Shown in pieces: positions 38,012 to 64,000 of a DNA stretch of 64,000 nucleotides. The first letter of the stretch is position 1. Every line of letters begins with the position of its first letter. The notes under the pieces were generated by a model. The model saw nothing but the letters and a program-made list of their open reading frames with translations. It made no database searches and was not told where the DNA came from. A program made the translations under genes and the position numbers. This DNA comes from a candidate division KSB3 bacterium. Lineage in GTDB: Bacteria; Moduliflexota; Moduliflexia; Moduliflexales; Moduliflexaceae. Where the stretch lies: the NCBI GenBank assembly GCA_002748425.1, contig PDSJ01000025.1:22605-86604 (forward strand), in the 5' to 3' direction.

Positions 38012-38047
38012 AACATTGACGCACGAAGAACATATAAGGAGAGCCAG

Positions 38048-39334: not shown

Positions 39335-39455
39335 AGAACGATGGGAAAGGAGGGATGGCCTTTATGAAGGGTGTATAAGTCTGTTTTGACAGCAGGGACC
39401 TCGCGTAGAATAGAAACAGCTTTATCAATATGTCAATTGGAGAGGAGAAAATATC

Positions 39456-40265: not shown

Positions 40266-40349
40266 CGCTCCAGCTCGCGATCAGGAGGTCGGGATTTCCA
40301 AGGGGGATTCCGGCCTCAAGCAGCTTTTTTGCATTCCGTTCTATGGACA

Positions 40350-43253
40350 ATGGATAAACACGACACAAACAGGCTACACATCAAACAGGTTGATGTCGAG
40401 AAAATTCCTCTGAGCCCTAATAAAGTTCTGTACCACATTAGTGACCGGTTTCTTATCAACGATCTTGATGATGAGGGGAAGGAGATTTGGAAAGAGGTTC
40501 AGCCTGGAGAAAACGTCTATTTAGGCCAGGAGCACTTGGTCTTTCCTCCCCAGATATTTTTTGGGAACGAACGCATTACTCTCAGTGCATACGATGTCTA
40601 TTGGGCTAAAACCTTTCGTAAGGGATTCTTTTCAGCGGAGAAGAGGGTCTTTTGCAATCAGATCCCTTTTCGAGCCGAGCCCGGCACACTGACGGGAATC
40701 ATGGGGCCCTCTGGTGCCGGAAAAACCGTTCTGCTGAACCTGTTAAGCGGCTATATATGTTCTCCTCGTAATTATGGGCAGGTCTTTATTAATGGGAGTT
40801 ACGACGTGCATAAAGAGCGCCGAATTCTGGGTCGGACGATCGGATATGTTCCGCAAGACGATACGCTGATTCCTCAACTCACTGTCCAGCAATCGCTAGA
40901 TTACTGTTTTCAGCTGCGCTATTCCGGCGTACCGAACAATTTACAGCAGCATATCATTGAAGACGCCTGTCAAAAGGCGGGATTCTCCAGAGAAAGCCTG
41001 CCAGATTTACTCGCAGCAAAAATCGGATCGCCTGACGAAAAAACTCTGAGCGGCGGAGAGCGCAAGCGCGTGAATATCGCCCATGAGTTGATTCGCCACC
41101 CCTTGCTGCTGTTTCTGGATGAACCCACATCCGGGCTTTCGTCAGTCGATGCCGACACGGTAACCCAGTCCTTAAAAGAGTTATGCACACGGACCAATAT
41201 TACGATTATTCTCACAATCCATCAGCCGAGCCGCGAATCATTTGATTTACTCGATCGTCTGCTGATCGTGAACCAGGGAGGCAATCTTGCGTATCTGGGC
41301 GATCCGCAAGACGCTGTGGCATATTTTGCGGGGCACGCTGGCATGACCTATCAGGCCCGACAGAACCCTGCTGAATTTATTTTACGCGCTCTGAACAGGT
41401 GGACAGCCTCATTAGCCGCCTCAAACAGCGTCACTGCACTGTCTCCTGAAAAAAGTATTACAGAGGCGTATTATCGCCAACCCGGATATTTTTCATTCAA
41501 CTTGACAGAATCGCTACTGGAAACTCTTCGGGATCAGGGAATGGCGTCTGAGGCCTTAGAACGGCTTGCTCCGCTGAAAAACCGGCGATTTCTCTGGAGA
41601 TCGGAGTATCGCAAAACCCTGAAAACGGCTTTAGGGCAGGGGTATGATGTGGAACAACGCGAGGTCCTCCGTCAGGTCGTTCAGAAAGGACATCCTGTCC
41701 GTTTGTCTGATATCCATCAAGAACGACTGCGTGATATTCCAAACCTGAGTACGTCATTCTTTCAGCAATTCCGAGTCTTGTTCCGCCGGAATCGGTCCGT
41801 GACTCATGCCGAGATCAAGACCCGGCTTTTTCAATCCTTTCAGCCCATCGCAATCGCTCTGCTAATGCTGCTCGCATTTTCCTGGTATTCACAGGATTAT
41901 TACAGCGAAGACATTTTTGCCAGGGTCGGCTGCTATTTCACCCAGAAGGTCAAGCAAGGCCAACAAATTCGGACCTGGAAAGATTTGCCTATTGCGAAAG
42001 CGCAGGCATACTCTCAACCACATCTGATGAGCGAGGGAGCGGCCAACCGTCGAGCGGCTATCTTTTTCTTACTTGTCGCTGCCTGCATCTGGCTCGGCAT
42101 CATCAATTCGTGTCAAGAAATTGTCGCTGAACGTACCGTCGTCAAACGGGAAGCCAAAAGTATTGTACGCATTTTTCCCTATCTCGTCGCAAAAATCATC
42201 TTTTTGGGATACATTTGTCTGAAACAGAGCCTGCTCTTATTGGCGATCATCTTTTTACCCAACATGCTTCTGACTACTGAGCGCTGGCGGCCGCTTTTCT
42301 CTGAAGGCTTCCGGAACCTTCTGCTAAAATTTCAGCTTTTCCCCAAAGCCAACTTCTTCTACGGAGCGGCCATTCTTGCGATTCTGTTTATCACCACCTG
42401 TGTGGCGTCATGGATGGGCTTAGGCATCTCGGCATTTGCACCGACTCCAAAAACCGCATTAACGATGGTTCCACTGTTGATTATCCCCCAATTATTGTTG
42501 GGAGGGCTTATCCGCCCGATCAAAGATATTGGGCGTCCGGAGAGCATCATGCTGACGCCGCAGGCCTTTTCGGAATTACGCCGGCACGTGCCGGATACAA
42601 TTCTGGACCAGCTTCAGGACTTCAAAAACCGTCCTTTTGCCAGAGAGCATGATTTTGTAGTCGGAATCCGTAGTCGAATCGGCGATAACGCCATGGCAGA
42701 CTATCGAGACATGCTGGTTGAACAGGCCCGCGTAACGACTCGCTGGGATCGAGCGCTCTTTTACGCCGGCGGCCTTCATCATCTGATGCTGCAAAAATGG
42801 GCTTTTAAAGCGCTCTTGCTTTATGACTCTCTCGGGAGGCTGCGCGTCCTGAAAAAAATTGTAGATTTCGACCGTTACCGGGAATATGAATATATTCAGT
42901 TTGAGGAACAGAGGCTCGTGGAAATGTTTTTCCCCGTGTCATTAGATAGCGCATATTATACGGCGCAGGAATATCAGAATTTCCTTGCAGACTTTCCGGA
43001 TGCAACAACAATGCTTCAGGACATTATCCACTTCGACAGGGTCGGAAACGTGTCTCTTCAGCTCTCAGATTTATCTGAAAGGGAACGCCAGGCTCTTCCT
43101 CGAGGCTCAGAAGACAATATCCTGGCGCACCGCGCACCGAAGCGCCAGATTTATGCTCTATTAACGCATACGTTTATCATCATAGTTGTGCTCTACGGAT
43201 TTTTTGTGCTTGTCCCGACCTATTGGTGGCTGCGAAAAAGCTTACTGACCTAA
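40350..43253 (+). CDS. ABC transporter, fused ATPase plus ABC-2-type permease (ABCG/White-like) with roughly 100-aa N-terminal extension
   Basis: Walker A GPSGAGKTVLLN, signature LSGGERKRVNIA, Walker B LLFLDEPTSGLS, then about 500 aa of multi-TM domain. The ORF is open from TTG 40329. Confidence 0.85.
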   Translation: MDKHDTNRLHIKQVDVEKIPLSPNKVLYHISDRFLINDLDDEGKEIWKEVQPGENVYLGQEHLVFPPQIFFGNERITLSAYDVYWAKTFRKGFFSAEKRVFCNQIPFRAEPGTLTGIMGPSGAGKTVLLNLLSGYICSPRNYGQVFINGSYDVHKERRILGRTIGYVPQDDTLIPQLTVQQSLDYCFQLRYSGVPNNLQQHIIEDACQKAGFSRESLPDLLAAKIGSPDEKTLSGGERKRVNIAHELIRHPLLLFLDEPTSGLSSVDADTVTQSLKELCTRTNITIILTIHQPSRESFDLLDRLLIVNQGGNLAYLGDPQDAVAYFAGHAGMTYQARQNPAEFILRALNRWTASLAASNSVTALSPEKSITEAYYRQPGYFSFNLTESLLETLRDQGMASEALERLAPLKNRRFLWRSEYRKTLKTALGQGYDVEQREVLRQVVQKGHPVRLSDIHQERLRDIPNLSTSFFQQFRVLFRRNRSVTHAEIKTRLFQSFQPIAIALLMLLAFSWYSQDYYSEDIFARVGCYFTQKVKQGQQIRTWKDLPIAKAQAYSQPHLMSEGAANRRAAIFFLLVAACIWLGIINSCQEIVAERTVVKREAKSIVRIFPYLVAKIIFLGYICLKQSLLLLAIIFLPNMLLTTERWRPLFSEGFRNLLLKFQLFPKANFFYGAAILAILFITTCVASWMGLGISAFAPTPKTALTMVPLLIIPQLLLGGLIRPIKDIGRPESIMLTPQAFSELRRHVPDTILDQLQDFKNRPFAREHDFVVGIRSRIGDNAMADYRDMLVEQARVTTRWDRALFYAGGLHHLMLQKWAFKALLLYDSLGRLRVLKKIVDFDRYREYEYIQFEEQRLVEMFFPVSLDSAYYTAQEYQNFLADFPDATTMLQDIIHFDRVGNVSLQLSDLSERERQALPRGSEDNILAHRAPKRQIYALLTHTFIIIVVLYGFFVLVPTYWWLRKSLLT

Positions 43254-43274
43254 GGTCAACGAAAGAGGAAAACG

Positions 43275-44093
43275 ATGACAATACTCCCGGAGCCGGTTCG
43301 GTTTACGTCACAGGAATATGAACGTTTTTTAGACAATTATCCTCATGTCGAACGGGCGTTATCTGATCCCTTTATCAGCGAAGAAGGAGAAACGATCCCT
43401 TTAATCAAACATGTCAACGAGGGAGTATTGATCTATCTCGATCTCCTTTCCTGCGAGCAGGAGAAAGAACTTGGCGCTGCCGCTTTACGCGAACTCAACA
43501 AACGTCTTTTATCAGAAAGAAACTATCACCCCAAAATACACATTGCAATACTCGGAATCACGCTTGCTACGATGATCGCCATCGGATGGAGACTGTTTTT
43601 TCTCCAAGATGTACGGGAACCTCCCTTGGCGACACCCACAGCAATTCCGACGCCGGTTCACACGTCGGCTCCGCCGCGCCCTGTGCCAACGCTGCGTCCA
43701 ACTTTTAGCCCGATACCGACAGCAAAACCGATTCCGACCTTTACTCCAAAGCCGAGATCGACTCCGACGGTGAAGGCGACACCCAAACCTCTTTACATCA
43801 GTGGAGTGTATGTACAAGACGCCAACAAAAATTTTGTTCCTGAACTTGACGGGAAATACTTGGTCAAACCTCTCGAAGTCCTGACACTTGAAGTACAACT
43901 GGAACATTCTGAGCATCGAGAGTTCTCGATAGAATATACACCAATGTACGGCACACTGCAAGCCCCGTCACGCTATATTGCACCCAATAAGCCCGGTGAG
44001 TTCGATTTGATCGTCGTGAAGGTCAGTGATGCTGAAAGCGGACTCCTGCTCGCTCAGGAGAGCGTCAAAATCAAGATTATCGATTCTTATTAA
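43275..44093 (+). CDS. Membrane-anchored Pro/Thr-linker protein with C-terminal beta-domain 'Y'
   Basis: TM segment (IAILGITLATMIAIGW), a PT-rich linker, and a C-terminal approximately 95-aa domain homologous to the C-terminus of the next CDS. Confidence 0.5.
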   Translation: MTILPEPVRFTSQEYERFLDNYPHVERALSDPFISEEGETIPLIKHVNEGVLIYLDLLSCEQEKELGAAALRELNKRLLSERNYHPKIHIAILGITLATMIAIGWRLFFLQDVREPPLATPTAIPTPVHTSAPPRPVPTLRPTFSPIPTAKPIPTFTPKPRSTPTVKATPKPLYISGVYVQDANKNFVPELDGKYLVKPLEVLTLEVQLEHSEHREFSIEYTPMYGTLQAPSRYIAPNKPGEFDLIVVKVSDAESGLLLAQESVKIKIIDSY

Positions 44094-44181
44094 TAACGTT
44101 CGTATCTACGAGCGCGCGTTGTCGGAAGCCAAAATCCAGAAATTGTACCATAAAAATAAGCCGTTAACTAAGGAGGTAAAC

Positions 44182-44907
<726 letters not shown>

Positions 44908-44934
44908 ATACAATTAAGGAACAGGAGGATGATC

Positions 44935-46107
44935 ATGAAAAAATATCTGATAACTATGGTAGTGATCGTGGCGTGTATCATGGGAGCTTCTTCTGCCGTA
45001 TGGGCTTCGGCCATGGCGGAATTAATCGAGCATATCGGAGTCGCAAAAATTGTGAGTATGGAGATCAGGCCTCTCTATCGCGTGACTGAGGAAACGCTGG
45101 CCTGGCTTAAAGCGGAGAACGTTCCAGAACAAATTTGTCTAAATCCTCAGTTGCTGAGTCTCAAAGATCAGACATACGATGGACGCGACGCGTTTCTGAG
45201 TGCTTTAGAACGTGCCCTGGACAGTGCTGATCTTGACCAGGAGATCGAAGGTGACACGGTTAGAATCTTGCTCCTGCGCTATGCCAGACAGCGTCCCTCC
45301 GAGAGGCATTCCGGTATTCTGGATGTCGCGATCGATATCAGCAACAGCAACGACCGCGACATCAAATTAACCGAATCGCTTTTCGACTTCTCATTGCGCG
45401 ATGAAGAAGCGATGGGTGGAATGATTCAACTGGGAAAAGACGTTGTCTATCGCAATACAGACATTGATCTGCCAGCGAACCCTGAGCATGATCCGGAAAA
45501 GGTTACGCGGGTCGTCTTTTCTATTGAATTGCAGGATGAGAGGAAGTCCTCATTCGATCCCCTTGTACACCTGCTGAACTTCAGCGGCAATCCCGCGCAG
45601 GACGATTACTTGTTTGTCAATGCGCGCTTTACTCTGGGTATGAAGTCGAGTAAAGGCTGGACCTATGGTGAAGCCATTCGCGTGGAGTGGATGTTCTGTC
45701 CGGACATGCAGAATCAATTACCGTTACAAGAATGCTTTATCGAGCTTCCTCCTCCGGCACCTGATTTTCCGGGAACGGTTTCCAGCCCGCTTTCGATCGC
45801 CTGTGACAATCTGGTTAAGGCCGGAAGAAACATCATTAAAAAACGCACGGATTATTATATCGCAGATCTCGGGGAAACGGCCGGAACCTTTCACCTTGAT
45901 TTTGAGACCTATACTGAACCGGACCAGATCCTCGTTGAGTACGAAGGAAAAGTGTTGTATGATACCGGCTGCGTCGGGGCTTCCGGCTCTGAAACGATCG
46001 CGTATTCCGGTACAACGTCATCAATGAAAGTTAGTGTCACTTCTCGTTGCCGCCGCGTCGGTCCATCGGTTACTGATTGGGATTTCAAACTGAGCTGCCC
46101 GGAATAG
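44935..46107 (+). CDS. Secreted WHy/LEA_2-like domain protein with C-terminal extension (paralogue 4)
   Basis: Signal peptide. SNSNDRDIKLTESLFDFSL and KGWTYGEAIRVEWMFCP closely parallel the 39456 CDS. Confidence 0.6.
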   Translation: MKKYLITMVVIVACIMGASSAVWASAMAELIEHIGVAKIVSMEIRPLYRVTEETLAWLKAENVPEQICLNPQLLSLKDQTYDGRDAFLSALERALDSADLDQEIEGDTVRILLLRYARQRPSERHSGILDVAIDISNSNDRDIKLTESLFDFSLRDEEAMGGMIQLGKDVVYRNTDIDLPANPEHDPEKVTRVVFSIELQDERKSSFDPLVHLLNFSGNPAQDDYLFVNARFTLGMKSSKGWTYGEAIRVEWMFCPDMQNQLPLQECFIELPPPAPDFPGTVSSPLSIACDNLVKAGRNIIKKRTDYYIADLGETAGTFHLDFETYTEPDQILVEYEGKVLYDTGCVGASGSETIAYSGTTSSMKVSVTSRCRRVGPSVTDWDFKLSCPE

Positions 46108-46197
46108 ACCTCTACCTGTAACGGATTGGAGGAATCGGTTCTGTTCCATTCTCCTCTTCGTTACAGACAGACAATATTCGGCTGGATTCAAGAACGT

Positions 46198-47589
46198 ATG
46201 CAACATATTTTTCGAAAGAGAATAGTTTTCTGCTGGTGGCTGAGCATGGCGGTCGTCATGACTGCTTGGTCCATCAGGGCAGAGCCGATAGCCCTGAAAC
46301 TGGTATGCGATCCTGATGTTCGTGAGATCGCCGCCGGGCAGTTTCCTGATGGAATTTTGATCGAAGCGCAGACCAATATGCATGATCTCAGTTATCGCTG
46401 GACGTATACAGGCCCTGGAACGTTACAAGGGAACCCTGCGGATTCGTATATCCTGTACCGCCCGGAAGCTGTGCAGCACAAACAGAGCGAACAGGCAGTC
46501 ATCACGCTGACAGTAAGCGATGGCAGCGGGACCGTGAAGACCCAGCACGTCAGCTTCAAACTTCTGCCCGCAGCTTCGCCCGCGCCGAGTACGCTCGCGA
46601 CAACCCGCACAACTCTCCCGGCAGCAGCTCCTGAACCGACCACTGAAAAACTCACCATCCTCAGCGATCCTCCAATTGAGACGATTTATATGCTCGGAGA
46701 AAAGAAAAATGCGGAAATTATCTTGATGGCTCAGACTTCAAAAAACAATGCCGAATTCGAGTGGACTCTGAATGGACCGGGTGCTTTAGAGGGAGATACG
46801 AGCAGTTCAATCGTGCTGTATATTTTGCCTGAAAGCCTCCCACAACGGTTTGATCAGGCTGAAATCCGTGTGACAGTACAAAACGCTTCAGGGGAAAACG
46901 CGATCGCCAACATGATAATCAAGCTTATGGCTCCAGACGATACAGTTCCAGCGCTTTCGCCTGAAGTTCTTGAGTTTCGCACACAGTTCGACTTCGTTCC
47001 TGTATCTGCCGGAACGCATGACATCTCGAAATATTTGCAGCAGTATCTTCGATTTCTTGTCAGAAAGCATGTCGTCATCCAACATGATTTTTTCATCCAG
47101 GCCCATGAAGTGACCGTTGGGCAATTCCGGGAATACGTGAGAAGTCTGAGTTGGGAAGAAAAGAAGCGGATCGGAACGCGTTGGGAACGGGGTCGGACCG
47201 AAAAGCTCTACGATGACGACCGTCCGGTAGAGAATGTGAGCTGGCAGGATGCAGCCGCTTATGCAAGATGGGCCAGCGAAAAAACTCAATGGACTTTAGG
47301 GCTGCCGACGATCGAACAATGGGCTGCGGCTTGCGTGACATATCCTGGATTTGCGCCAGTGCTTTCTCCGTCCGACGGTCAGCCTCTGTCGACAATCCGC
47401 CATAAGGTCGACCATTTGCTTGGAAACCTCCGGGAATGGTCTGTTACGTCCTGTGAAGATGGAGGATATTTTTTACTTGGAGAGAATTATATGAGCGATC
47501 GTAACGACCCGGCTTCAATCGGCCGGAAACAATGTGCTTCGGGAAGCTGGAATGGAATCGGTTTTCGATTGATACGAGAGACCCGATAA
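46198..47589 (+). CDS. Secreted protein with 2 GPG-domains plus C-terminal FGE-sulfatase (SUMF1/formylglycine-generating-enzyme-like) domain
   Basis: FGE-family hallmarks DRPVENVSWQDAAAYARWAS, LGLPTIEQWAAAC, GNLREWS and GSWNG…GFRL. The GPG motifs are SYRWTYTGPGTL and EFEWTLNGPGAL. The ORF is open from TTG 46126. Confidence 0.75.
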   Translation: MQHIFRKRIVFCWWLSMAVVMTAWSIRAEPIALKLVCDPDVREIAAGQFPDGILIEAQTNMHDLSYRWTYTGPGTLQGNPADSYILYRPEAVQHKQSEQAVITLTVSDGSGTVKTQHVSFKLLPAASPAPSTLATTRTTLPAAAPEPTTEKLTILSDPPIETIYMLGEKKNAEIILMAQTSKNNAEFEWTLNGPGALEGDTSSSIVLYILPESLPQRFDQAEIRVTVQNASGENAIANMIIKLMAPDDTVPALSPEVLEFRTQFDFVPVSAGTHDISKYLQQYLRFLVRKHVVIQHDFFIQAHEVTVGQFREYVRSLSWEEKKRIGTRWERGRTEKLYDDDRPVENVSWQDAAAYARWASEKTQWTLGLPTIEQWAAACVTYPGFAPVLSPSDGQPLSTIRHKVDHLLGNLREWSVTSCEDGGYFLLGENYMSDRNDPASIGRKQCASGSWNGIGFRLIRETR

Positions 47590-53773: not shown

Positions 53774-54538
53774 ATGCTCCGATGTACTGTTGAGAATATT
53801 AGCCTTGAACGCAACCACGACTTTAAATTGTGTATCCCGAGCCTTGAAGTCTGCACAAAAGGGCACAATGCCATAACCAAACTACCCCTTATGGGAAAAA
53901 GCGGAGCTGGCAAAAGTACGTTACTCAACCTGATGGCAGCGGTTGAATGGCCGGATACGGGAGGGATTTCCTGGGAGTTTCCAGATCGGGACGCGCCGAT
54001 CACCTGGTCTAAAAATGGTCCTTCCCCGGCACAAGTGCGCTTGCTGCGCCGAAGATATTTCGGATTTGCCTTTCAGGACAGTACCTTACTGACACACATG
54101 AGCGTGCGGGAGAACTTGTCCTATCCGCTAATTTTAAACGGCTTGCCGCCGTGCCAGGCTTATGAAGCCGCCTGGAATGCACTGGATCGGGTGCTGCTTG
54201 ATGATGAGCGTTCCTATAAAAACGAACTGTTCAGACAGTTTCCGTCGAAACTTTCAGGGGGGCAACGCCAGCGCACAGCGCTGGTGCAGGCCATGATTCA
54301 CAACCCCTGTGTGCTCTTTGCCGATGAACCTACCGGCAGTCTGGATCGCGCAACGCGCAAGCAAGTGATGCAATCCCTCTATAATTGGGTCGATGACCAA
54401 CGTTACTGCGGAAAACGCCTGCTGCTCTGGGTGACGCATCATGAAAACGATCCCTGCGATGCCGGTGCTCAATGGATTCTCAAGGTGGATTCCGGAAGTC
54501 ATACCCTGCTTCCATTCAATTGTCACGAAACGCAGTAA
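53774..54538 (+). CDS. ABC transporter ATP-binding protein (LolD/MacB/FtsE-like)
   Basis: Walker A GKSGAGKSTLLN, signature LSGGQRQRTALVQA, Walker B VLFADEPTGSLD. Confidence 0.85.
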   Translation: MLRCTVENISLERNHDFKLCIPSLEVCTKGHNAITKLPLMGKSGAGKSTLLNLMAAVEWPDTGGISWEFPDRDAPITWSKNGPSPAQVRLLRRRYFGFAFQDSTLLTHMSVRENLSYPLILNGLPPCQAYEAAWNALDRVLLDDERSYKNELFRQFPSKLSGGQRQRTALVQAMIHNPCVLFADEPTGSLDRATRKQVMQSLYNWVDDQRYCGKRLLLWVTHHENDPCDAGAQWILKVDSGSHTLLPFNCHETQ

Positions 54539-56328
54539 TGTACTCACAGCGTATGAAAAACGTTTGGGATAAAAATATTCGCGCCTGTCTGGTCCTGGCC
54601 TGGAAAGAATTTTGCTTGCCTTTCCACTACCGAAAATCCGGATGTCCGGGTGGACGGGATTTTGTGTGGCTCAGTACCTTTATGGCGCTGATTCTGACTC
54701 TGATGTTTCTGCTGCTGGGAAGCCGCGAGGGTATGTTGAATCGTTTTGTCGACGTCTTTCTGGGAAACGTCAAGGACTATGGCGTCCCGATTTCCGTGAC
54801 GAATAACTTGTTAAGCGCAGGAGGGATAAATGCGATCGACAGCTCAGTGCTTCAGGCTGTCAATGAGCTGCCGCATATCACGATCTTTCCCTACCGGCCA
54901 CTTGAAGCTGCCTTACATCCACTCATCAAACTGGCTGACGACAAGATATGGCAGAACAGGCAGGAGAACGGGAGCAAAATTGGACCAGACTTCGATGGTC
55001 GGGCCGTCTATCCCGAGGATCCGCTCTGGGGCGAGACAGGCGATCTGCATACGTTTCCTTTAGAAATAATCGCCAGCCGCTCTGCTTTTCGGAAATATTT
55101 CGACTTCGAAGCCTATCGGGAGAGTTTACAGCAAGAACTGCCGGAGCAATTATTTCAGGAACTCCCTGTTCACGTTGATTTTGCAGCGAAAAGCCCTTTC
55201 AAACAGATCTGGCTGAAAGTCACTCTGGGCCTGGAAGAGGAGCTATACCCGTTTCGAGTCCGCTGGGTGACGCGCTTTCCAGTGGTCGATCGTCTTGCCT
55301 ATCTGTTTCCTTTGAGTACCTATCAGGTCTTAAAGGCGGCCCATGACTTCCCTGAATTGCGATATTTTCCAGAGGCGCAAGGACCAGTGAACATGCGAAT
55401 TCAAGAAATTTCGATTGAAAAAAATCAGGAGAGTACAAAAAATGGCAAAGACATAGCACTCCGCGAATTTGCTGAAAAGACTGGGGGAACACTGAGGAAC
55501 TATCGAGGAGATTTTTTGATCTCCTTCAATAGACCGTTAGCAGCTTTTCGGCTGGATGCATACGCGCAGCAATATGGAATAAGCTACTGGCCCATGGATA
55601 CGATTCCATCGGATCCGATCGCATTTCAGCAAGGCATTCTCAGCCTGCCCTGTAAACGGGTGCCGCCTGAAACGCTTCAGGAATTGGATGAGGCGTGTAA
55701 TGCTGAGAGTGTGCATGCTCTTCAACTGGATGTCACCTCCGGGGGACAGGGATTTCATCGGGCACAGGTCTATGTTGCCGACCGGACTTTTCTTGCTGCT
55801 GCGGTTGAACGGCTTCTGCAAATCAAGCAGCAGGCCCTCTCGATTCATCCCTCATATCAGGACGCCTTAAATCGTTTCAGCTTTTTAAGTAAAGTGCTGA
55901 ACGTGATAGAGAAACCCTTCACCTGGTTTGTTGGAGTATTTTTACTATCATTCATGGCTATCCAATTGGCCACGTTGATCGGCCATCACCGCCATCGTTA
56001 CGGTCTGTTACTGGTCAAGGGGATGGAGTGGTGGCAGATTTACTGTATGCTCTTGACACAGCTTGCCATGGCCTTGGGGCTGGGGCTGATCGCCGCCTTA
56101 GGGATTATTACTGCGGCGCGACGCTTTTTGCAGGCGGCGATTGTCGTAGTTGCGGAAGAGTACGCCGAAACAGTCAGTCTTGCAGACGTCGATCTGCTGC
56201 CGCTGACATGGGGAGATTATCTGCCGGCGACCGCTCTTGTCCTGCTTCTCGCCTGGGGACTAGCTACACTGATGTTATACATGATGCCGTTGCGGCAGCG
56301 TACTCATCCGGCAATGCTTTTGCACTAG
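54538..56328 (+). CDS. FtsX-like (MacB/LolC-type) ABC transporter permease
   Basis: N-terminal TM helix, a large periplasmic domain, and a C-terminal FtsX motif RYGLLLVKGMEWWQIYCMLLTQLAMALGLGLIAALG followed by two more TM helices. The ATG overlaps the upstream TAA (TAATG). Confidence 0.7.
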   Translation: MYSQRMKNVWDKNIRACLVLAWKEFCLPFHYRKSGCPGGRDFVWLSTFMALILTLMFLLLGSREGMLNRFVDVFLGNVKDYGVPISVTNNLLSAGGINAIDSSVLQAVNELPHITIFPYRPLEAALHPLIKLADDKIWQNRQENGSKIGPDFDGRAVYPEDPLWGETGDLHTFPLEIIASRSAFRKYFDFEAYRESLQQELPEQLFQELPVHVDFAAKSPFKQIWLKVTLGLEEELYPFRVRWVTRFPVVDRLAYLFPLSTYQVLKAAHDFPELRYFPEAQGPVNMRIQEISIEKNQESTKNGKDIALREFAEKTGGTLRNYRGDFLISFNRPLAAFRLDAYAQQYGISYWPMDTIPSDPIAFQQGILSLPCKRVPPETLQELDEACNAESVHALQLDVTSGGQGFHRAQVYVADRTFLAAAVERLLQIKQQALSIHPSYQDALNRFSFLSKVLNVIEKPFTWFVGVFLLSFMAIQLATLIGHHRHRYGLLLVKGMEWWQIYCMLLTQLAMALGLGLIAALGIITAARRFLQAAIVVVAEEYAETVSLADVDLLPLTWGDYLPATALVLLLAWGLATLMLYMMPLRQRTHPAMLLH

Positions 56329-56452: not shown

Positions 56453-57868
56453 ATGATGACAAAATCAGGACAGACTGGATTATACGCCTCCATCTTGATG
56501 ATTCTTATGACTATCTGCCTTTCACAACACGTCTGTGCTCAGCCTTCCGTTGTGCTGATTGCGAAGCCCAAAACGCACACAATTACTCTTGGCGAACGCC
56601 CGGAGAAGATCGTGCTCAAGGCCCGTACCAGCGGCGAAGTTGAGTTTCTGTGGGAACTGGACGGACCTGGATCATTTGAGGGTGATGCAACGACGCGGGA
56701 ACTCGTGTATCTTCCGCCGTCGTCTATAACGGCCGACAGCACGGAAGTCACAATCTCAGTAACGGTCAACACTACACGAGGCGAATCCGCCAGCGATCGC
56801 ATAACGTTCGAGCTTCGTGAACCTGTCGAGAGTCCTTTCCCCACGGCGACGCCGGTTTCGGAAACGGTTCCCCCTTCCGAGTCCCTCGAATCATCCCCAA
56901 AGGCCGGCAATCTCTATGTGCTTATTCTGGGGGCAGAAGAGTATCAGGATGAACGTATTCAGCCGATTCAGTTTGCTCATCAGGACGCAGAGGCTTTGTA
57001 CGAAGCCTTCATAGACCCGGATATCGTCGGAGTTCCGGAAGAGCGGGTGAAGATGGTTTTCGGGCCTGACTTCATTGATAGAAATATTAAACGAACGTTG
57101 GGAAAATGGCTGTCGGATCGTGTGACGGACGAGGACCTGCTTCTGATCTATTATACCGGATATCAGGCGCAAGAGAACGCAGAGTACTACTGGCTGACCT
57201 TCGATGCAGAGCTTGATGACCTTTTCAGCACAGCGGTCAGTGAGGAAGAATTCACAGAAATGCTCGAGCGTTTGGCACCGAAAGCTGCGATCTTTTTAGT
57301 TGACGCTGCGCCTTTTGCTGCAGAAACCTCTGAGGAAGACGAAGCAGCGTCGGAGGAGATTAGCCTCTCAGCGTTTCAGGTGTTTTCAGAAGCACGACGG
57401 CTACTCATCCAGGCGTCTGACGGCATGCGCTTCTCCCAGCGTCTGACAAAACAGCAGCACGGAGAATTCGGCTATCTGCTCCTGCAAGCTTTTCAGGGCA
57501 ATGCTGCTTCATCCATCAACGGCCAGCTCACGTTTGCCGAACTGTGGACCTATCTTAAAAAACAGACAGAGAACAACGAAGAGAGCTTGCAGCCTGTACT
57601 CCGGGGGAAGCGCGATCTCGACATCGTGCTGATGGCTGCGAGAGCAGAAAACATCGCGTCAGACAATTCTGATGAAACAGCTTCCATCGAAATTTCAAGA
57701 GACGACACCGGAAAAGAACGGATTATTGAAATTTACCGCCACGGCGACATTTCAGCGGCACAATTCAAAAAAGCCCTTGATATTCTTCAATCAGGAGAAA
57801 CAGATCAAATCCTCGATGATTTTTTACAGGGAACAATTTCGCTTGAAATATTTTCGGAAATTTTTTAG
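56453..57868 (+). CDS. Secreted GPG-domain protein with catalytically degenerate caspase-like (C14) domain and conserved C-terminal tail
   Basis: AAGGAG SD and signal peptide. GPG motif EFLWELDGPGSF…YLPPSS. The caspase-like region LYVLILGAEEYQ…LLLIYYTGYQAQ…AIFLVDAAPF is homologous to the 61611 CDS, but His is replaced by Tyr and Cys by Ala. Confidence 0.6.
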   Translation: MMTKSGQTGLYASILMILMTICLSQHVCAQPSVVLIAKPKTHTITLGERPEKIVLKARTSGEVEFLWELDGPGSFEGDATTRELVYLPPSSITADSTEVTISVTVNTTRGESASDRITFELREPVESPFPTATPVSETVPPSESLESSPKAGNLYVLILGAEEYQDERIQPIQFAHQDAEALYEAFIDPDIVGVPEERVKMVFGPDFIDRNIKRTLGKWLSDRVTDEDLLLIYYTGYQAQENAEYYWLTFDAELDDLFSTAVSEEEFTEMLERLAPKAAIFLVDAAPFAAETSEEDEAASEEISLSAFQVFSEARRLLIQASDGMRFSQRLTKQQHGEFGYLLLQAFQGNAASSINGQLTFAELWTYLKKQTENNEESLQPVLRGKRDLDIVLMAARAENIASDNSDETASIEISRDDTGKERIIEIYRHGDISAAQFKKALDILQSGETDQILDDFLQGTISLEIFSEIF

Positions 57869-57922
57869 GCACATTTACCACATTCTATACATTATTCTTA
57901 ACAGTATTCGGAGTGTATCAAG

Positions 57923-60544
57923 ATGACAGCCTTACAAAACAGCAGAAACATACGTTGGAAAATTTTTGTCGGGATGGCAAGCCTTTCTCTCTTATTCAGT
58001 TCGACAGGATGGGCGGAGAAGATAGTCTGGCATGACTACAAATACCCATTAAAGGAGACGATTCGCGTGTTTCAGCATGAAGAATATGCCATCGAAAGCG
58101 TTGATGTTCAGGTCTCTCTTCCCTCACAATTTTTGCGCCATCATAAGGAGATCGAACTTCTCGTGTATCTGAGAAGTCGAACCGTTACGTCTAAAGGCAA
58201 AACCGGATTTCACGATTTCTCCCCGCTGATCCGGGTGAATAATGCATTCATAAAGCGTTATAAAATTCCCGTCAAGAAGACACCCAGCCGGCAGCACCAG
58301 GTCGTACGCATTGCACGCAAGGATTTAAAGCCTGGGGGCAACACACTGCAATTCACCTTCAAATGGCATCACAGTGGCTGGTCCTGTTCTGGAAAGGGTT
58401 GTGGATATGAAATTACCAAGATGGTTTTTAAAGATGCTCCAAAACCGACTCCCACTCCCACTCCGACCAGAACGCCCACGCCGCGTCCCCGTAAAAAGAC
58501 AACGGTTCTGAGGCCGACTGCGACGCCCACGCCTTCTCCAGTTATCAGTCTGTTGGAACAGGCCGATAGATACGTTGAGAAAAAGTGGTTTCTAACGCCC
58601 AAGGAGACAAATGCCTTTGATACGTATAAGCGAGTTCTTCGTATATCGCCCTCTAATATGCATGCCAGAAAGAAACTCTATGAAATGATGAAAGGCTACA
58701 AAAGCTGGGGAGATAATAATTACAAAGAGGGCGCGCATGAAAAAGCAAAATCCTATTACGAGCGCTACATGACTATTGCACGATATGTGAAGGATGAGCT
58801 TCGTTCCCAGTTCTCCGGACAGATCGAACAGGATTTTACAATGGTGTCGGACCGTCTGGAACTGATTGAAAATCCACCGACGCCGACACCAAGCCCGGAG
58901 CCGCTTAGTGACGATCTGCCAGTCATTGAAATCTCAACGGAACTGCCTGAAAAATGTGAGTCAGAAGAGCTGACCTTGCAGGGAAGTGTCAAGGACGATC
59001 TGGGAGTAACGGGTATCTACTTCTTCCTTAATAGCGAAGCACATGAAGAGCTCACCTTCCCGGAGGACGAATCGCTCGTGGAACAACCCTTTGAAACGAC
59101 CTTTTCGTTAAGCCCCGGCGATAACACCATCAGCATTGAAGCTCGCGATACCAGTGGGCAGCGTATGACCTGGGACACGCGTCTCACGAGACAACTCCCA
59201 CCTGAAACACCGCCTGTTGCGCCGACGCCACAGCTTCCCCTTCTCGACGAATATCCTGACATTATCTTTCTTCCGGAACTTCCCTCTGAAACACAAGAGC
59301 CGTACATACATGTCGAGGGCCATGTGAAGGACGACCGAGGAATTCAGGATTTTAAAATCAGCATCCGCCGTCCGGATTCAACTTGGTTTGAGGTACTGAG
59401 AAATGTAACTTTTGACGGAACGAACTTTTCAGCAGATATTCGTCTGGAAATCGGCGAGACAACGCTCATGCTCGTGGCCGCAGACACACTCGGGCAATTG
59501 ACGAAAAAAGAAGTGATGATTCAGAGAAGATCGGAAACTAAAGCGCCAGATCAGGACGACGGGAACTCGGCTTCTGAATTTGGAGAACACGCGCCTGAAA
59601 ACACAGCGCCAGCCGTCAAGCGTGTTGTCATTCTTGTGGCTGCCGAAGAGTATCTCGATGCTGCAATACCGCCCTATCAATGCGCTGAGAACGATGTACA
59701 CAAAGTCTACGAGTTCTTCACTGATCCTGAACGCGGCGGGCTTCCGCAAGAACAGGTCATACTGTTGACAGGAACTGACGTCACCGAGCGAACACTGAAA
59801 AAGACTTTCGGAGAATGGCTCAGGCAGCAGGCAAAAGCCGGGGATATCAGCCTGCTGGTCTATTTCATCGGCTATGGGGGCTGCGAACACGATCGACGCT
59901 ATTGGCTCAGTCATGACACAACTCTTGATGATATTTTCAGTACTTCACTGGATTTACGAAAAATCAACACATTACTTTCACGGATTCCGACGCAATTCGT
60001 AACAATTTTTCTCGATACGGTGTTCCTGGGCGGAGAACAGTCCGGCGCAGCGGAGCCTTTGTGGAAAATTCTATCAGGAGAAGGGCGGGCCATTGCAGCC
60101 GCTTCACACGGAAAGACCCCGCATATCTGCGATGATGAACAGTCGGGCAGCTCCTTCACATCATCATTTCTCCAGGGACTCGCAGGAGAAGCAGACCTCA
60201 ACAGCGACGGAAAGATTTATAGCCCGGAATTATGGGAATTTATGAGTCGGAGCCTGACGAATGCAGCCGACGGTGCAGAAAGGCTCCATCCAGTGCTTGT
60301 GGGAGAACTGCCTCACGAATTGCTCGTGACGCTGCCGTTGCCAGAGGAAAAGCTGTCAGCATCCGGCGAAAAAAAGCGCCCGGATGCCAAAGATGCCATT
60401 ATCGACATCTACCGCAACGGCCATATTTCGGCCGATCAGTTCAAACGAGCGCTGCAGATCTTAAAAAACGGCGAAACAGATCGACTCCTTGAAGACTATC
60501 TTGACGGAAAGATTCCACTTGATATCTTTAAGGACACTTTTTAA
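57923..60544 (+). CDS. Large secreted protein with PT linkers, degenerate caspase-like domain and the same conserved C-terminal tail
   Basis: Signal peptide and PT linkers (PKPTPTPTPTRTPTPRP). The caspase-like region VVILVAAEEYLD…SLLVYFIGYGGCEHD…VTIFLDTVFLGG has no His/Cys dyad. The tail IIDIYRNGHISADQFKRALQILKNGETD is shared with the 56453 CDS. Confidence 0.6.
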   Translation: MTALQNSRNIRWKIFVGMASLSLLFSSTGWAEKIVWHDYKYPLKETIRVFQHEEYAIESVDVQVSLPSQFLRHHKEIELLVYLRSRTVTSKGKTGFHDFSPLIRVNNAFIKRYKIPVKKTPSRQHQVVRIARKDLKPGGNTLQFTFKWHHSGWSCSGKGCGYEITKMVFKDAPKPTPTPTPTRTPTPRPRKKTTVLRPTATPTPSPVISLLEQADRYVEKKWFLTPKETNAFDTYKRVLRISPSNMHARKKLYEMMKGYKSWGDNNYKEGAHEKAKSYYERYMTIARYVKDELRSQFSGQIEQDFTMVSDRLELIENPPTPTPSPEPLSDDLPVIEISTELPEKCESEELTLQGSVKDDLGVTGIYFFLNSEAHEELTFPEDESLVEQPFETTFSLSPGDNTISIEARDTSGQRMTWDTRLTRQLPPETPPVAPTPQLPLLDEYPDIIFLPELPSETQEPYIHVEGHVKDDRGIQDFKISIRRPDSTWFEVLRNVTFDGTNFSADIRLEIGETTLMLVAADTLGQLTKKEVMIQRRSETKAPDQDDGNSASEFGEHAPENTAPAVKRVVILVAAEEYLDAAIPPYQCAENDVHKVYEFFTDPERGGLPQEQVILLTGTDVTERTLKKTFGEWLRQQAKAGDISLLVYFIGYGGCEHDRRYWLSHDTTLDDIFSTSLDLRKINTLLSRIPTQFVTIFLDTVFLGGEQSGAAEPLWKILSGEGRAIAAASHGKTPHICDDEQSGSSFTSSFLQGLAGEADLNSDGKIYSPELWEFMSRSLTNAADGAERLHPVLVGELPHELLVTLPLPEEKLSASGEKKRPDAKDAIIDIYRNGHISADQFKRALQILKNGETDRLLEDYLDGKIPLDIFKDTF

Positions 60545-60545
60545 T

Positions 60546-61544
60546 ATGCACCGAATGAAGACAACAAGAGCTCAAACATTGAACATAACGTGCTTCTGCC
60601 TTTTGACCGCACTTGTCTGCAATGTGAATTCTGTGCATGCGCAAGATATTTTGCTGGAGATTGAGGTGGAACCAAACCTCCGAACGCTGCGACTCGACGG
60701 AAAGATGCAAGACATTTCTCTGGTCGCTCAGAGCACTCGACAAGATCTCGCGTTTAAATGGACATTGCAGGGGCCGGGTAACCTTTTAGGGGATGATGAA
60801 AGTCCCGGAATTTTTTATCTGCCACCGAAAACACTCGATGCCGGGATGCCGTCGCAAGCCAGCGTTGTCTTGAACGTCCATGACGATCGAGGCAGCCAGG
60901 CCAGCAAAAAAATTATTTTCCAGTTGCTCAATGCTCCAGAACCGTTATCACCTTCCGAAGCGGAAGAGCCTCCCCCCACGCCTGACAGATTATCCCCTTC
61001 TCACTCCACTCCGCTGGTATTTCATATCAGCTGTCGGTATCATCCGTCTCATGAAAAAACATTTCGTCCCATAAACGAGGGAAGCGTTCTCCACTCCGGC
61101 GATCATTATCGCATTGTCTTTACCCCGCAACAAGACGCATACGTCTATATTTACCAGATCGACGACAGCGGACTGGTCTTTCAACTTTTTCCGATGGATC
61201 GTTTTAGGGGAAGGCCAGTGAATAATTTCAATCCGGTACAAGCCGGGAGGGACTATTATGCGCCGGGCAAAGAAATGTCTTTTGTACTGGATGAACTGAC
61301 TGGAACCGAACGCATATATTTTCTTGCATCCCGCAAACAAAACCGTTTTTTAGAAGAACGTTACGAGCAACTGCAAAAGGAGCCACCATCGCAACAGGAG
61401 GCCCTGTTTCATGAGCTTCTGCGACAGGTGATGGACCAGCACGGCATCGAATATACGAAACCCCACGATTTTGACGCCATACAGGATAGTCTGGAGAGTT
61501 TATGTCAAGGTTGTGTGTACACGTTATCGTTCGAGCATAGATAA
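60546..61544 (+). CDS. Secreted GPG-domain protein with C-terminal DUF4384-like beta domain (tentative)
   Basis: Signal peptide. GPG motif AFKWTLQGPGNL…FYLPPKT. The C-terminal GDHYRIVFTPQQDAYVYIYQIDDSGLVFQLFP…PGKEMSFVL pattern resembles DUF4384. The ORF is open from 60489, overlapping the previous gene. Confidence 0.5.
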   Translation: MHRMKTTRAQTLNITCFCLLTALVCNVNSVHAQDILLEIEVEPNLRTLRLDGKMQDISLVAQSTRQDLAFKWTLQGPGNLLGDDESPGIFYLPPKTLDAGMPSQASVVLNVHDDRGSQASKKIIFQLLNAPEPLSPSEAEEPPPTPDRLSPSHSTPLVFHISCRYHPSHEKTFRPINEGSVLHSGDHYRIVFTPQQDAYVYIYQIDDSGLVFQLFPMDRFRGRPVNNFNPVQAGRDYYAPGKEMSFVLDELTGTERIYFLASRKQNRFLEERYEQLQKEPPSQQEALFHELLRQVMDQHGIEYTKPHDFDAIQDSLESLCQGCVYTLSFEHR

Positions 61545-61610
61545 AAGCTGAGTATATGTCGAATTTCACAGGTAGACAGCATGTTTTTTACGCAAAGGAG
61601 GGACACTCTC

Positions 61611-63593
61611 ATGACAAAATCAATAGCTGGTCTGGCAGGATGTCTGTTTACAGCCTTCTGCGTTCCAGGACTGCTTTTTGCCCAAGGTGGTGTCAAGGAT
61701 ACTGATTTTTACAGTAAAAGCTGGGCAGTCGTGATCGGAATTAATGATTATCAAAACCATCAGTATAATCTGGAATATGCGGTCAACGACGCGGAAGCCA
61801 TGGCGCTGCGCTTCGAACACATGGGTTTTGAAGAGGTCATCCCTGTCATCGATGCAGACGCGACCCGGGAAAATATTCTGCAATTACTGACAGTAGAATT
61901 GCCTCAAAAAATCGAGGAAAACGACCGACTGGTGATTTTTTATGCCGGACACGGGGCAAGCGGTCAACTTATGAATCCGGACGAGTGGATCAGCGGACAG
62001 GACCGGGTGGGCTTTCTGGTGCCCCATGACGCGGTCTTTGACTTCAAGAGTCTCGACGACAACGCGATCGCGATTGAGAATTATCAGAGCTTTCTGGAAG
62101 AGACGCATTTTATCTCACTCGAAGATTTACGGAACGTGTCGGATTCGATTCGCGCCAAACAGATCCTCTACATTCTTGACGGCTGCTACTCCGGCTTTCT
62201 GGATCCTGCGGCCTATAAATTCCGGTCAGCTCGACGGACGGCGTTTGTCGGGGAATCGAGCGCGACAGCTCATGGAACGCAGCGGGGCTTAGAGATAAAT
62301 CCTCCAAGGCCCGCTGACAATGAGTCGCAACGAGGCATGAAGCTTTCAGTCGACGATTCCGGGCCGCTCCACGAAGAAAAAAAATTGGCCTCCCGGCCGA
62401 CGGTTCAGATCCTGACGGCCGGAAGTTCCGGAGAGCCGGTTGTAGAAAAAGGCGGACACGGCATTTTCACGTTCTATCTTTTACGGTCATTGGACGGCTT
62501 TATTGACGATAACGCCAATTGCGTTGTGCGAGTCAGCGAGATGGCCTATTATCTCAGAGAAGTCGTGCCAAAAGCGTCAAGAGGTCAGCAAACGCCTTTA
62601 TTCGGACGTATCAGCGGCGAAGGGGATATGATTTTCGTGCCGTCAATCTGTAATCCTCTGGAGGAGAAAGATCTCGCAGCTCCGACAGCAGATTCAGACT
62701 GGCAGAAGGCCGAAGCCTACAAGGCCAAAACACAAGGAGGCTATAAAGAGCCAACGCACATCGTAGTGGATCACGCCCGTCATCTCTATGTCTTAGACAG
62801 CAAACGGCAAAAAATTTTTCAATTCGACAGCGCGGGAAATTTCTTGTCTGACGATTTCAGCTTTGTGCAAGACGGCAGGCAATGGATCCCGCATTCAATG
62901 GCTGTCAGAGCAAATGACGATCTCTGGGTATTTTACAAAGCCCCAGGCAAGCAGAAAGAGCCTGGGAAGATTCTTGTGTTTCAGCCCACTGGAGAGACTG
63001 GGGACAATTGGGCTGGAGCACTGGCGATCGATTCCTGCGATTTTGGCGAAAAGCCGTTTCCCTCCCAGGCCTTGATCGCCCTGGATTGGGAAGATAATCT
63101 CTTGCTGCTCGATCAGGAACAGGAGACTCACATGAAATGCGACAGTGACGGAATGTTGGTCCTGCAAAAAGGCCCGGAAGGCGACTATGCCCGTTTTAAA
63201 GGGGCTCAGGGAATGACGGTCGATAATTTCGGCTACCTTTACATCGCCAATACCGAAGGACACGGTATACAAAAATTTTTCGACGGACAATGGATCAAAA
63301 CCCGCTGGCCGCAATTGAAAGGAAATGATAAGCTGTACTTCAAACGTCCGCACGGGCTTGCAGTAGATCAGCAGCTCTTTGTGTATGTCGCAGATACTGA
63401 AAATCACCGCATTAAAAAATACACCAATAAAGGTGAAAAGCTTTTAAGCTGCTGGGGGAAAAAGAATGCTGCAAAGGGTAGCAAGTATGGTCAGTTCAAG
63501 AAGCCAAAGGATGTGGCTGTCAGTCCTGACGGGCGCTATGTGTATGTGGCGGATACAGGCAACAAACGCGTTCAACGTTTTATTAATCAATGA
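61611..63593 (+). CDS. Secreted caspase-like cysteine peptidase (C14, intact His/Cys dyad) fused to NHL-repeat beta-propeller
   Basis: AGGAGG SD and signal peptide MTKSIAGLAGCLFTAFCVPGLLFAQG. Caspase motifs WAVVIGINDYQ, VIFYAGHGASG (His) and ILDGCYSGF (Cys). C-terminal NHL-type repeats (YIANTEGHGIQKF, VYVADTENHRIKKY, VYVADTGNKRVQRF). Confidence 0.75.
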   Translation: MTKSIAGLAGCLFTAFCVPGLLFAQGGVKDTDFYSKSWAVVIGINDYQNHQYNLEYAVNDAEAMALRFEHMGFEEVIPVIDADATRENILQLLTVELPQKIEENDRLVIFYAGHGASGQLMNPDEWISGQDRVGFLVPHDAVFDFKSLDDNAIAIENYQSFLEETHFISLEDLRNVSDSIRAKQILYILDGCYSGFLDPAAYKFRSARRTAFVGESSATAHGTQRGLEINPPRPADNESQRGMKLSVDDSGPLHEEKKLASRPTVQILTAGSSGEPVVEKGGHGIFTFYLLRSLDGFIDDNANCVVRVSEMAYYLREVVPKASRGQQTPLFGRISGEGDMIFVPSICNPLEEKDLAAPTADSDWQKAEAYKAKTQGGYKEPTHIVVDHARHLYVLDSKRQKIFQFDSAGNFLSDDFSFVQDGRQWIPHSMAVRANDDLWVFYKAPGKQKEPGKILVFQPTGETGDNWAGALAIDSCDFGEKPFPSQALIALDWEDNLLLLDQEQETHMKCDSDGMLVLQKGPEGDYARFKGAQGMTVDNFGYLYIANTEGHGIQKFFDGQWIKTRWPQLKGNDKLYFKRPHGLAVDQQLFVYVADTENHRIKKYTNKGEKLLSCWGKKNAAKGSKYGQFKKPKDVAVSPDGRYVYVADTGNKRVQRFINQ

Positions 63594-63675: not shown

Positions 63676-64000
63676 ATGATCAATCGTCAAGTAATGAAGT
63701 CTGTCGCTTGTGTCGTGTTTGTAAGTTATGTATCAGTCTTTAACGCTGAGTGCATACAGGCAGCGGAGTTAAAGCTGCTGCCTGAACATTGGCTGTTGAC
63801 TGCCCAGGCCGGGGACACAACAGCCGTCATCGACAGTGTGGCCGGCAAAGAAGCGCAGCAAGCCGTGTATTCCAGTAAAATCCAGCGTCTTGAGGCCAAC
63901 ATCAACCGCAAGCGGGGCACCAGAAACACGTTGATGACAGTGACGGTCTCATCCGGTCTCATTGGAGTCGGTGTTGCACTCGGGGCTTCATCGATTTATG
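63676..64000 (+). CDS. Secreted hypothetical protein, N-terminal fragment (3' end outside window)
   Basis: GGAGG SD 7 nt upstream of the ATG. Signal-like MKSVACVVFVSYVSVFNAEC. Open to the window end. Confidence 0.45.
   Translation, partial: MINRQVMKSVACVVFVSYVSVFNAECIQAAELKLLPEHWLLTAQAGDTTAVIDSVAGKEAQQAVYSSKIQRLEANINRKRGTRNTLMTVTVSSGLIGVGVALGASSIY

Follow-up and report, generated by a model that had tools for sequence, protein, structure and literature searches.

Do catalytically dead caspase homologues encoded beside an intact one serve to control it, or do they have a role of their own? This question is raised by a gene cluster within a 64,000-nt stretch of DNA (hereafter the window) from an uncultured candidate division KSB3 bacterium (assembly GCA_002748425.1, contig PDSJ01000025.1, positions 22,605–86,604). 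The KSB3/Modulibacteria are gliding, filamentous bacteria (PMC6390638). Three genes of the cluster, designated A, B and C, encode caspase-like proteins. An earlier inspection of the DNA (the sequence-only reading) described them as one intact C14 caspase-NHL protein (C) accompanied by two paralogues with both catalytic residues replaced (A and B), and proposed that the latter are regulators or decoys analogous to cFLIP. The present analysis confirmed the observation and gave partial support to the interpretation: A and B are probably non-catalytic subunits of a conserved envelope system, in which they would bind Arg/Lys peptides or act as scaffolds. The genes in question, together with gene D located between B and C, are listed below.

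56453..57868, + strand: gene A (471 aa; intact open reading frame, ORF), encoding a predicted signal peptide (residues ~1–29), an Ig-like domain (~30–122), an acidic/Pro linker, a pseudo-caspase C14 domain (~153–395), a further linker and a helical tail (~422–471)
57923..60544, + strand: gene B (873 aa; intact ORF), encoding a predicted signal peptide, a beta domain (~32–170), a Pro/Thr linker, a TPR-like helical region (~198–316), two Ig-like (Glucodextran_B-like) modules, a pseudo-caspase C14 domain (~566–810) and a tail (~825–873)
60546..61544, + strand: gene D, encoding a predicted signal peptide, an Ig-like domain homologous to that of A, and DUF4384
61611..63593, + strand: gene C (660 aa from ATG 61611; ORF open from 61581), encoding a predicted signal peptide, an intact orthocaspase domain with two insertions, and an NHL beta-propeller

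Protein A is 100% identical to the NCBI entry "hypothetical protein CSA57_11210". The listed ORF of gene D starts at TTG 60489, and ATG 60546 is the first ATG after the stop codon of B.

The caspase fold of A and B and the loss of the catalytic dyad

Full-length A and B gave no Pfam match at E ≤ 0.1. When the C-terminal domains were scanned alone, both matched PF00656 (28.1 bits for A and 26.0 bits for B; gathering cut-off 21.4) and both covered positions 3–209 of the 211 positions of the NCBIfam caspase model NF047832 (E 2e-16 and 1e-17). BLASTP aligned 258 residues of A with P0002, an intact C14 protein of bacterial origin (E 4e-16), with FYFAGHG of P0002 opposite IYYTGYQ of A, and MDSCYSG opposite VDAAPFA. 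An AlphaFold model of residues 149–471 of A, based on a 25-sequence alignment (pLDDT 86, pTM 0.73), found a structural match in the MALT1 paracaspase (Foldseek, E 2e-10). This model was used in place of the single-sequence prediction of full-length A, which was unusable (pLDDT 37.8), and a phmmer search of PDB sequences with the A domain returned chance antibody matches only. With regard to p10, a domain whose absence sets orthocaspases apart from metacaspases, the Pfam C14 match of A and B runs to profile positions 195–198 of 233; the region after the Cys strand keeps the HG-F motif (His column 130/155) and lies within the modelled fold. The assignment of A and B to the caspase fold is thus upheld by the two profile matches and, for A, by the model and its resemblance to MALT1.

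At the column of the catalytic His, A contains Tyr237 (YYTGYQ, nt 57149–57166) and B contains Tyr651 (YFIGYG, nt 59861–59878); at the Cys column they contain Ala286 (LVDAAP, nt 57296–57313) and Val700 (FLDTVF, nt 60008–60025), respectively. These positions, which agree with the replacements originally described, were given alike by three alignments (BLASTP to P0002, and MAFFT alignments of 155 and of 14 domains). Among the 155 related domains, His is present in 139 and Cys likewise in 139. A shifted dyad was found in neither protein. The only cysteines of A (residues 22 and 28) lie inside the signal peptide, leaving mature A without Cys, and the domain cysteines of B (587, 654 and 736) fall in columns dominated by Tyr/Phe/Cys (pocket-lining), Pro and Glu, none of them being a conserved-nucleophile column. 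Nine of the 20 pseudo-domains in the alignment set have no Cys at all. By these comparisons A and B appear to be non-peptidase homologues of C14, in which the fold has been kept and the His-Cys dyad replaced; with both dyad residues substituted in each, they are probably pseudo-orthocaspases in the sense of Klemencic et al. (2019).

Export was read from the sequence. The products of A, B and C each have an N-terminal hydrophobic segment and an AxA-like cleavage site, which suggests that A and B are exported by means of Sec-type signal peptides. Judged in the same way, the possibility that C is a lipoprotein processed at "LAGC" was rejected, as this motif is too near the start and an AxA-like site (LFA/Q) follows it. 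The arrangement originally reported, a putatively exported intact C14-NHL protein next to two putatively exported C14-fold proteins without the dyad, was therefore recovered.

The S1 pocket, the C-terminal tail and the A/B subfamily

In metacaspase MC2 of T. brucei (TbMC2), residues Asp95 and Asp211 of the S1 pocket bind basic P1 residues (PMC6426788), and the pocket of A and B was assigned by reference to these two residues as cited in that paper. Both pocket aspartates are present in A (Asp178 and Asp284) and in B (Asp591 and Asp698). The first Asp is found in 150 of the 155 aligned domains (including A and B), and the Asp two residues before the Cys column in all 155. Since both aspartates are retained, peptide binding may have been preserved without catalysis. 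Cyanobacterial pseudo-orthocaspases likewise retain the pocket aspartates (PMC6426788).

An exhaustive HMMER search with a profile of A and B yielded 249 representatives at E ≤ 1e-30, many of which match to the last residue. The signature of this subfamily is a C14 domain followed by a C-terminal helical segment of ~50 residues, IYRxGxISxxQFKKAL..L..G..D.IL.DFL.GKI.LE.F (57716–57865 in A and 60395–60541 in B). Within A and B the tail is conserved better than any other part (~60% identical, compared with 32% overall) and is confidently placed in the AlphaFold model of A; its only Pfam matches were EF-hand-like and sub-threshold. In some relatives the tail contains a Cys pair (F.C....C at the end). 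Most tail-bearing members have an intact His-Cys dyad (HC-intact), and their N-terminal modules are varied (Ig-like, TPR-like, PEGA, very long repeat arrays). HMMER was needed to reveal the family: a protein homologue search with A identified only A itself and one distant TPR-C14 protein, and related-locus searches with A+B or A-type alignments returned nothing from genome contigs or metagenome contigs. As far as these searches show, the subfamily of putatively exported proteins with a C14 domain and a conserved ~50-aa helical tail is previously undescribed.

In a neighbour-joining tree, which has no bootstrap support and serves as an indication only, the nearest dyad-less relatives of A and B (P0004–P0007, P0011, P0015, P0030 and P0039) were placed in one long-branched clade that also includes two intact members. 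Such a grouping could result from independent losses of the dyad on several occasions, or from one loss combined with tree artefacts.

Gene C and its relation to A and B

The product of gene C matched Peptidase_C14 (53.6 bits) and NHL (83.6 bits). Its catalytic His124 (CAC at 61950–61952) is located in FYAGHGASG and Cys202 (TGC at 62184–62186) in ILDGCYSGF, at the very codons first reported. These motifs align with HYSGHG and DSCHSG of Arabidopsis metacaspase-4 and with the His and Cys columns of HC-intact relatives, and an acidic pocket is represented by the Asp residues of AVNDAE and LDGC. With a C14 match, both catalytic residues and the acidic pocket, C has the sequence features expected of an active orthocaspase. 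It differs from compact relatives in two insertions, one located between the strands of the His and the Cys and the other, an Arg/Lys-rich linker of ~60 residues, directly after the Cys. The linker (62190–62390; residues ~203–270), absent in those relatives, is kept in the orthologue from locus L003 (described below), and is a candidate for the site at which a protease with a basic-P1 pocket would process itself.

Comparison of the three proteins revealed 32% identity between A and B over 380 residues (E 1e-53). By contrast, the match of A to C extends over 85 residues only (E 8e-5), no match was obtained between B and C, and C escapes detection by the A+B profile. On this evidence the "trio" is composed of a pair of paralogues, A and B, and a distant member of the C14 family, C. 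The proposed paralogy of A and B with the active caspase could not be sustained, and because they are not its close paralogues the analogy with cFLIP, a close and heterodimerising paralogue of its partner, has lost its basis.

Homologues of C with 44–47% identity are encoded in Candidatus Moduliflexus flocculans and Candidatus Vecturithrix granuli, located after glycosyltransferase genes and with no A/B genes nearby. These homologues (L009, 10001–11995; L010, 10001–11992) follow four glycosyltransferase genes and are named "polysaccharide deacetylase" in NCBI/UniRef, which is probably a mis-annotation, their Pfam content being Peptidase_C14 and NHL. Since the L003 genome holds two homologues, 75% and 48% identical to C, those with 44–47% identity are probably paralogues.

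Conservation of the gene cluster

Directly upstream of A the window contains genes for an ATP-binding cassette (ABC) ATPase and a permease, and further genes of the cluster precede these. The flanking genes are as follows:

46126..47589, + strand: predicted exported FGE-sulfatase (C-type-lectin-fold) protein with two Ig-like copies of the A/D type; cluster head in L002 and L003
47649..49724, + strand: 691-aa protein, conserved in L002 and L003
49846..52290, + strand: 814-aa predicted exported protein, central region vWA-like (sub-threshold); 56–61% identity in L002 and L003
52347..53771, + strand: 474-aa paralogue of the 814-aa protein without the central vWA-like part; kept in L002
53774..54538, + strand: ABC ATPase of LolD/FtsE/MacB type, directly upstream of the permease gene in 4/4 loci
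54472..56328, + strand: FtsX/MacB-type permease, directly upstream of the A-type gene in 4/4 loci
63676..64000, + strand: start of the downstream gene, encoding a hydrophobic N-terminus and a second hydrophobic segment; continues past the window end

Related gene clusters were identified in the following loci (residues at the His/Cys columns are given in parentheses):

L001 (Logan SRR13394437): ABC, FtsX, A-type P0006 (Y/Y), B-type P0007 (Q/S)
L002 (Logan SRR13394437): FGE, 706 aa, 825 aa, 484 aa, ABC, FtsX, P0004 (Y/G), B-like gene (truncated by the contig end)
L003, first part (ENA, 10.1-Mb contig): FGE, 958 aa, 821 aa, ABC, FtsX, A-type P0011 (H/L), B-type 987 aa (C/K)
L003, second part (ENA): 336 aa, insertion sequence (IS) element, DUF4384, C14-NHL, downstream gene
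L011 (PDWJ01001316.1, metagenome contig): D, C, downstream gene (contig end)

The last of these was the one true full-length relative obtained in a metagenome scan with C, the other 79 matches being distant C14 domains.

The order ABC, FtsX, A-type, B-type is present in all four loci in which it could be followed (the window, L001, L002 and L003), so that A and B are linked to the transporter genes in 4/4 loci and to C in two. Genes D, C and the downstream gene are found as a group in three loci, and both blocks (ABC/FtsX/A/B and D/C/downstream) are combined in the window and L003. All of the A-type and B-type counterparts in L001, L002 and L003 are without the catalytic Cys, at 30–42% identity. 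They retain long ORFs, the domain order, the fold, the S1-pocket aspartates and the tail, and the dyad replacements differ between loci. The recurrence of counterparts without the catalytic Cys, in an identical gene order, at three further loci indicates that A and B are maintained pseudo-enzymes and not decaying genes.

Between the window and L003 the identity is highest for the true protease C (75%), followed by the ABC ATPase (64%), the 814-aa protein (56%), the permease (49%), the FGE protein (44%), D (43%) and the 691-aa protein (39%), and is lowest for the pseudo-proteases A (34%) and B (31–42%). The IS element of L003 (15627–17172; transposase genes with DUF772 and DDE_Tnp_1_2) is inserted between the B-type gene and the DUF4384/C14-NHL pair.

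Other genes of the cluster

All 17 large annotated ORFs from ~36.9 kb to the window end are on the + strand. The nearest families of the ABC ATPase are LolD/FtsE/MacB. The permease has four transmembrane (TM) segments, of which TM1 and TM2 are separated by an extracytoplasmic loop of ~390 aa; its match to Pfam FtsX is below threshold (17.1 vs 25.5 bits). The gene downstream of C directly follows the C orthologue in L003 (70% identity) and in L011 (55%), and probably belongs to the cluster.

The 474-aa protein corresponds to the 814-aa protein minus the central ~250 residues, which makes these a second pair of full and reduced paralogues in the cluster. The centre of the 814-aa protein contains DGTKS, a MIDAS-like motif, within the sub-threshold vWA-like signal (16.5 vs 25.7 bits). 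The L002 orthologue of the 691-aa protein has a TPR-like segment in common with B.

The co-oriented run continues upstream (36899–46107) with two OmpA-domain proteins, a 974-aa fused ABC-2 transporter and several proteins without a family match; small proteins with an Ig-like domain of the A/D type are encoded after the ABC-2 transporter and before the FGE-sulfatase protein. This domain (~95 aa, motif FxWxLxGPG), for which no Pfam match was found, is common to A (56540–56830), D (60630–60980), the ORF at 44026 (44260–44550) and the FGE-sulfatase protein (two copies, 46225–46965). A promoter/terminator scan gave background levels only and was not used.

Function of A and B

In A and B the caspase fold and the S1 pocket have been retained and the dyad has been lost, and their gene order and pseudo state are conserved together. 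The explanation that probably accounts for these observations is that A and B are Sec-exported, catalytically dead orthocaspase homologues which, with the fold and the basic-P1 (Arg/Lys) pocket preserved, would bind peptides or provide a scaffold instead of cleaving. They would do so within an envelope system encoded by the same-strand cluster, comprising the FGE-sulfatase-domain protein, two large exported proteins, the MacB/FtsX-type ABC transporter, the A-type and B-type proteins, the DUF4384 protein and C. What we infer is export, peptide binding and any functional coupling to the transporter or to C.

Several points weigh against this explanation. The full cluster including C was found in two loci only, and in L003 the IS element parts B from D and C. 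The HC-intact, tail-bearing protein P0010 (L007) is encoded in an unrelated context outside the cluster and, because HC-intact members of the subfamily occur outside the cluster and C-family homologues exist without A and B, the parts of the cluster are separable. Of all the products of the cluster, A and B are the fastest-evolving (31–42% identity, compared with 75% for C), which could reflect relaxed constraint instead of a specific role. A non-canonical nucleophile in B is formally possible, and the export of A and B is predicted from sequence features only. That A and B are decaying, functionless relics of once-active proteases is nevertheless extremely unlikely. Their position as the least conserved members of the cluster would fit such decay, as would dyad replacements that vary by locus, which is expected of unconstrained sites; however, the ORFs are intact (471 and 873 codons), the pseudo state in counterparts at 30–42% identity implies long persistence after the loss, the pocket Asp is invariant, the core motifs are kept, the tail is far better conserved than the remainder (~60% vs 32% overall) and the AlphaFold model is confident.

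Two other readings are more specific versions of the peptide-binding or scaffold explanation. According to one, A and B would be cFLIP-like regulators or decoys of C, which pair with its protease domain or compete for Arg/Lys substrates and thereby tune its extracytoplasmic activity. In favour of this, the three genes lie close together in the window with one orientation, the set recurs in L003 with a C orthologue 75% identical, and A and B have kept a basic-P1 pocket like that of C; precedents are known in TbMC4/TbMC3 and cFLIP/caspase-8 (PMC6426788), and dominant-negative bacterial caspase domains have been proposed (PMC7159879). This reading is nonetheless unlikely: a cFLIP-style heterodimer interface is not expected of proteins that are not close paralogues of C, the linkage to C is seen in just two loci (with the interruption in L003), and homologues of C occur without A/B neighbours. 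In a further locus, L006, the gene after that of a pseudo member (Q/V) encodes an intact protein from the same subfamily and not a C-type protein. Klemencic et al. also considered it most likely that the pseudo-orthocaspases of prokaryotes do not regulate true ones (PMC6426788).

According to the other, A and B would be adaptors of the FtsX/MacB-type ABC transporter, relaying the ATP-driven movements of its periplasmic loop to an envelope hydrolase such as C and possibly docking via the conserved tail. The model for this is provided by FtsEX-EnvC-amidase systems, in which a catalytically dead LytM protein is the adaptor on an FtsX-type ABC transporter and switches on a hydrolase. The position of the ATPase and the four-TM permease (with its ~390-aa loop) immediately upstream of the A- and B-type genes in 4/4 loci is consistent with such a role, as are the affinity of the ATPase to the LolD/FtsE/MacB families and the nature of A and B as pseudo-enzymes with an intact ligand pocket. 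The sole basis of the proposal is, however, synteny, the permease scores 17.1 bits against the 25.5 required for Pfam FtsX, and the tail-bearing relative in L007 has no such transporter on the visible part of its contig; an EnvC-like role is therefore quite improbable. It is very improbable that the cluster forms an extracytoplasmic caspase-activation machine of a filamentous bacterium of multicellular type, in which the ABC transporter would move A and B by ATP hydrolysis and these would present substrates to C or switch it on. If true, this would represent an EnvC-like use of dead proteases and contradict the published view on prokaryotic pseudo-orthocaspases.

To our knowledge, a mechanism has yet to be established for any bacterial pseudo-orthocaspase. 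According to the main survey, pseudo-orthocaspases probably act independently of true orthocaspases (PMC6426788). The locus provides a concrete, conserved context for testing this conclusion: the two pseudo-caspase genes follow those of an FtsX-type ABC transporter in every case, their products have kept the Arg/Lys pocket intact, and a highly conserved true orthocaspase is encoded nearby wherever the contig extends far enough. The putatively exported tail-bearing C14 subfamily also enables a direct comparison of active and dead members. If A and B are mere binding modules, the locus adds another phylum to known pseudo-protease biology, which would be a modest advance.

Comparison with known systems

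Dyad substitutions have been reported in 858 of 9,994 bacterial orthocaspases (8.6%), with 90% of the pseudo-variants originating from Alphaproteobacteria and Cyanobacteria and His-to-Tyr with Cys-to-Ser as the commonest change (Klemencic, Asplund-Samuelsson, Dolinar and Funk 2019, PMC6426788). As cFLIP and TbMC4 were already discussed as analogies in that survey, the remark in the sequence-only reading that such proteins are rarely noted in bacteria does not hold. A and B resemble the known bacterial pseudo-orthocaspases in having a p20/C14 fold with a replaced dyad (including the common His-to-Tyr change) and both S1-pocket aspartates, in the fusion of extra domains to C14, and in their co-existence with true orthocaspases in filamentous or multicellular bacteria. 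They differ in the dyad residues (Y/A and Y/V, with Y/G, Y/Y, Q/S, H/L and C/K in the counterparts, and not the YS, YN or QC clades), in the KSB3 host, in the predicted Sec-type signal peptides, Ig-like/TPR-like N-terminal modules and C-terminal helical tail, and in forming a tandem pair in a conserved cluster that also encodes a true orthocaspase and an FtsX-type ABC transporter.

With respect to the eukaryotic precedents, cFLIP-L is a close paralogue of caspase-8 and heterodimerises with it via the protease domain, whereas A and B are remote from C; TbMC4 is processed by TbMC3. The KSB3 proteins are without death-fold domains and would be extracytoplasmic.

Approximately 70% of the caspase domains fused to vWA components of bacterial conflict systems are inactive (Kaur, Burroughs, Iyer and Aravind 2020, PMC7159879), and dominant-negative or peptide-binding roles have been proposed for inactive bacterial caspase domains (PMC7159879). 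The vWA-MoxR (VMAP) systems are similar to the KSB3 cluster in being multi-gene systems of multicellular bacteria in which inactive caspase domains occur together with active peptidases and with domains of the FGE-sulfatase (FGS) and vWA types. In the cluster, unlike these systems, the pseudo-caspases are not fused to vWA, an FtsX-type ABC transporter is present, and the caspase-type and neighbouring proteins have N-terminal signal-like segments that point to an extracytoplasmic location. No MoxR AAA+ ATPase, VMAP, NTPase or death-like adaptor was revealed by Pfam scans of the products of the 36.9–64 kb region or by tblastn searches of the window with A–D and the two large exported proteins. 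Identification of the cluster as a vWA-MoxR ternary system was rejected, since no MoxR/AAA_3 is present among the 36.9–64 kb proteins and the sole vWA-like signal is sub-threshold (16.5 vs 25.7 bits). A known anti-phage defence system was likewise rejected: PADLOC returned generic matches only (C matched a caspase model and the ATPase an ABC-like one), with none for A, B, D, the permease or the large exported proteins.

The FtsEX-EnvC-amidase systems have in common with the cluster an FtsX/MacB-type ABC transporter encoded beside exported pseudo-enzymes and an active hydrolase. They differ in that the fold here is that of caspases and not LytM, the resemblance being no more than a lead.

Both the category to which A and B belong (bacterial pseudo-orthocaspases) and the idea of an inactive caspase as a dominant-negative or peptide-binding protein are already known. 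As far as these searches show, the new features are the phylum, the predicted export signals, the tail-bearing subfamily, the tandem pair, and its fixed place behind an FtsX-type ABC transporter in a cluster with a true orthocaspase.

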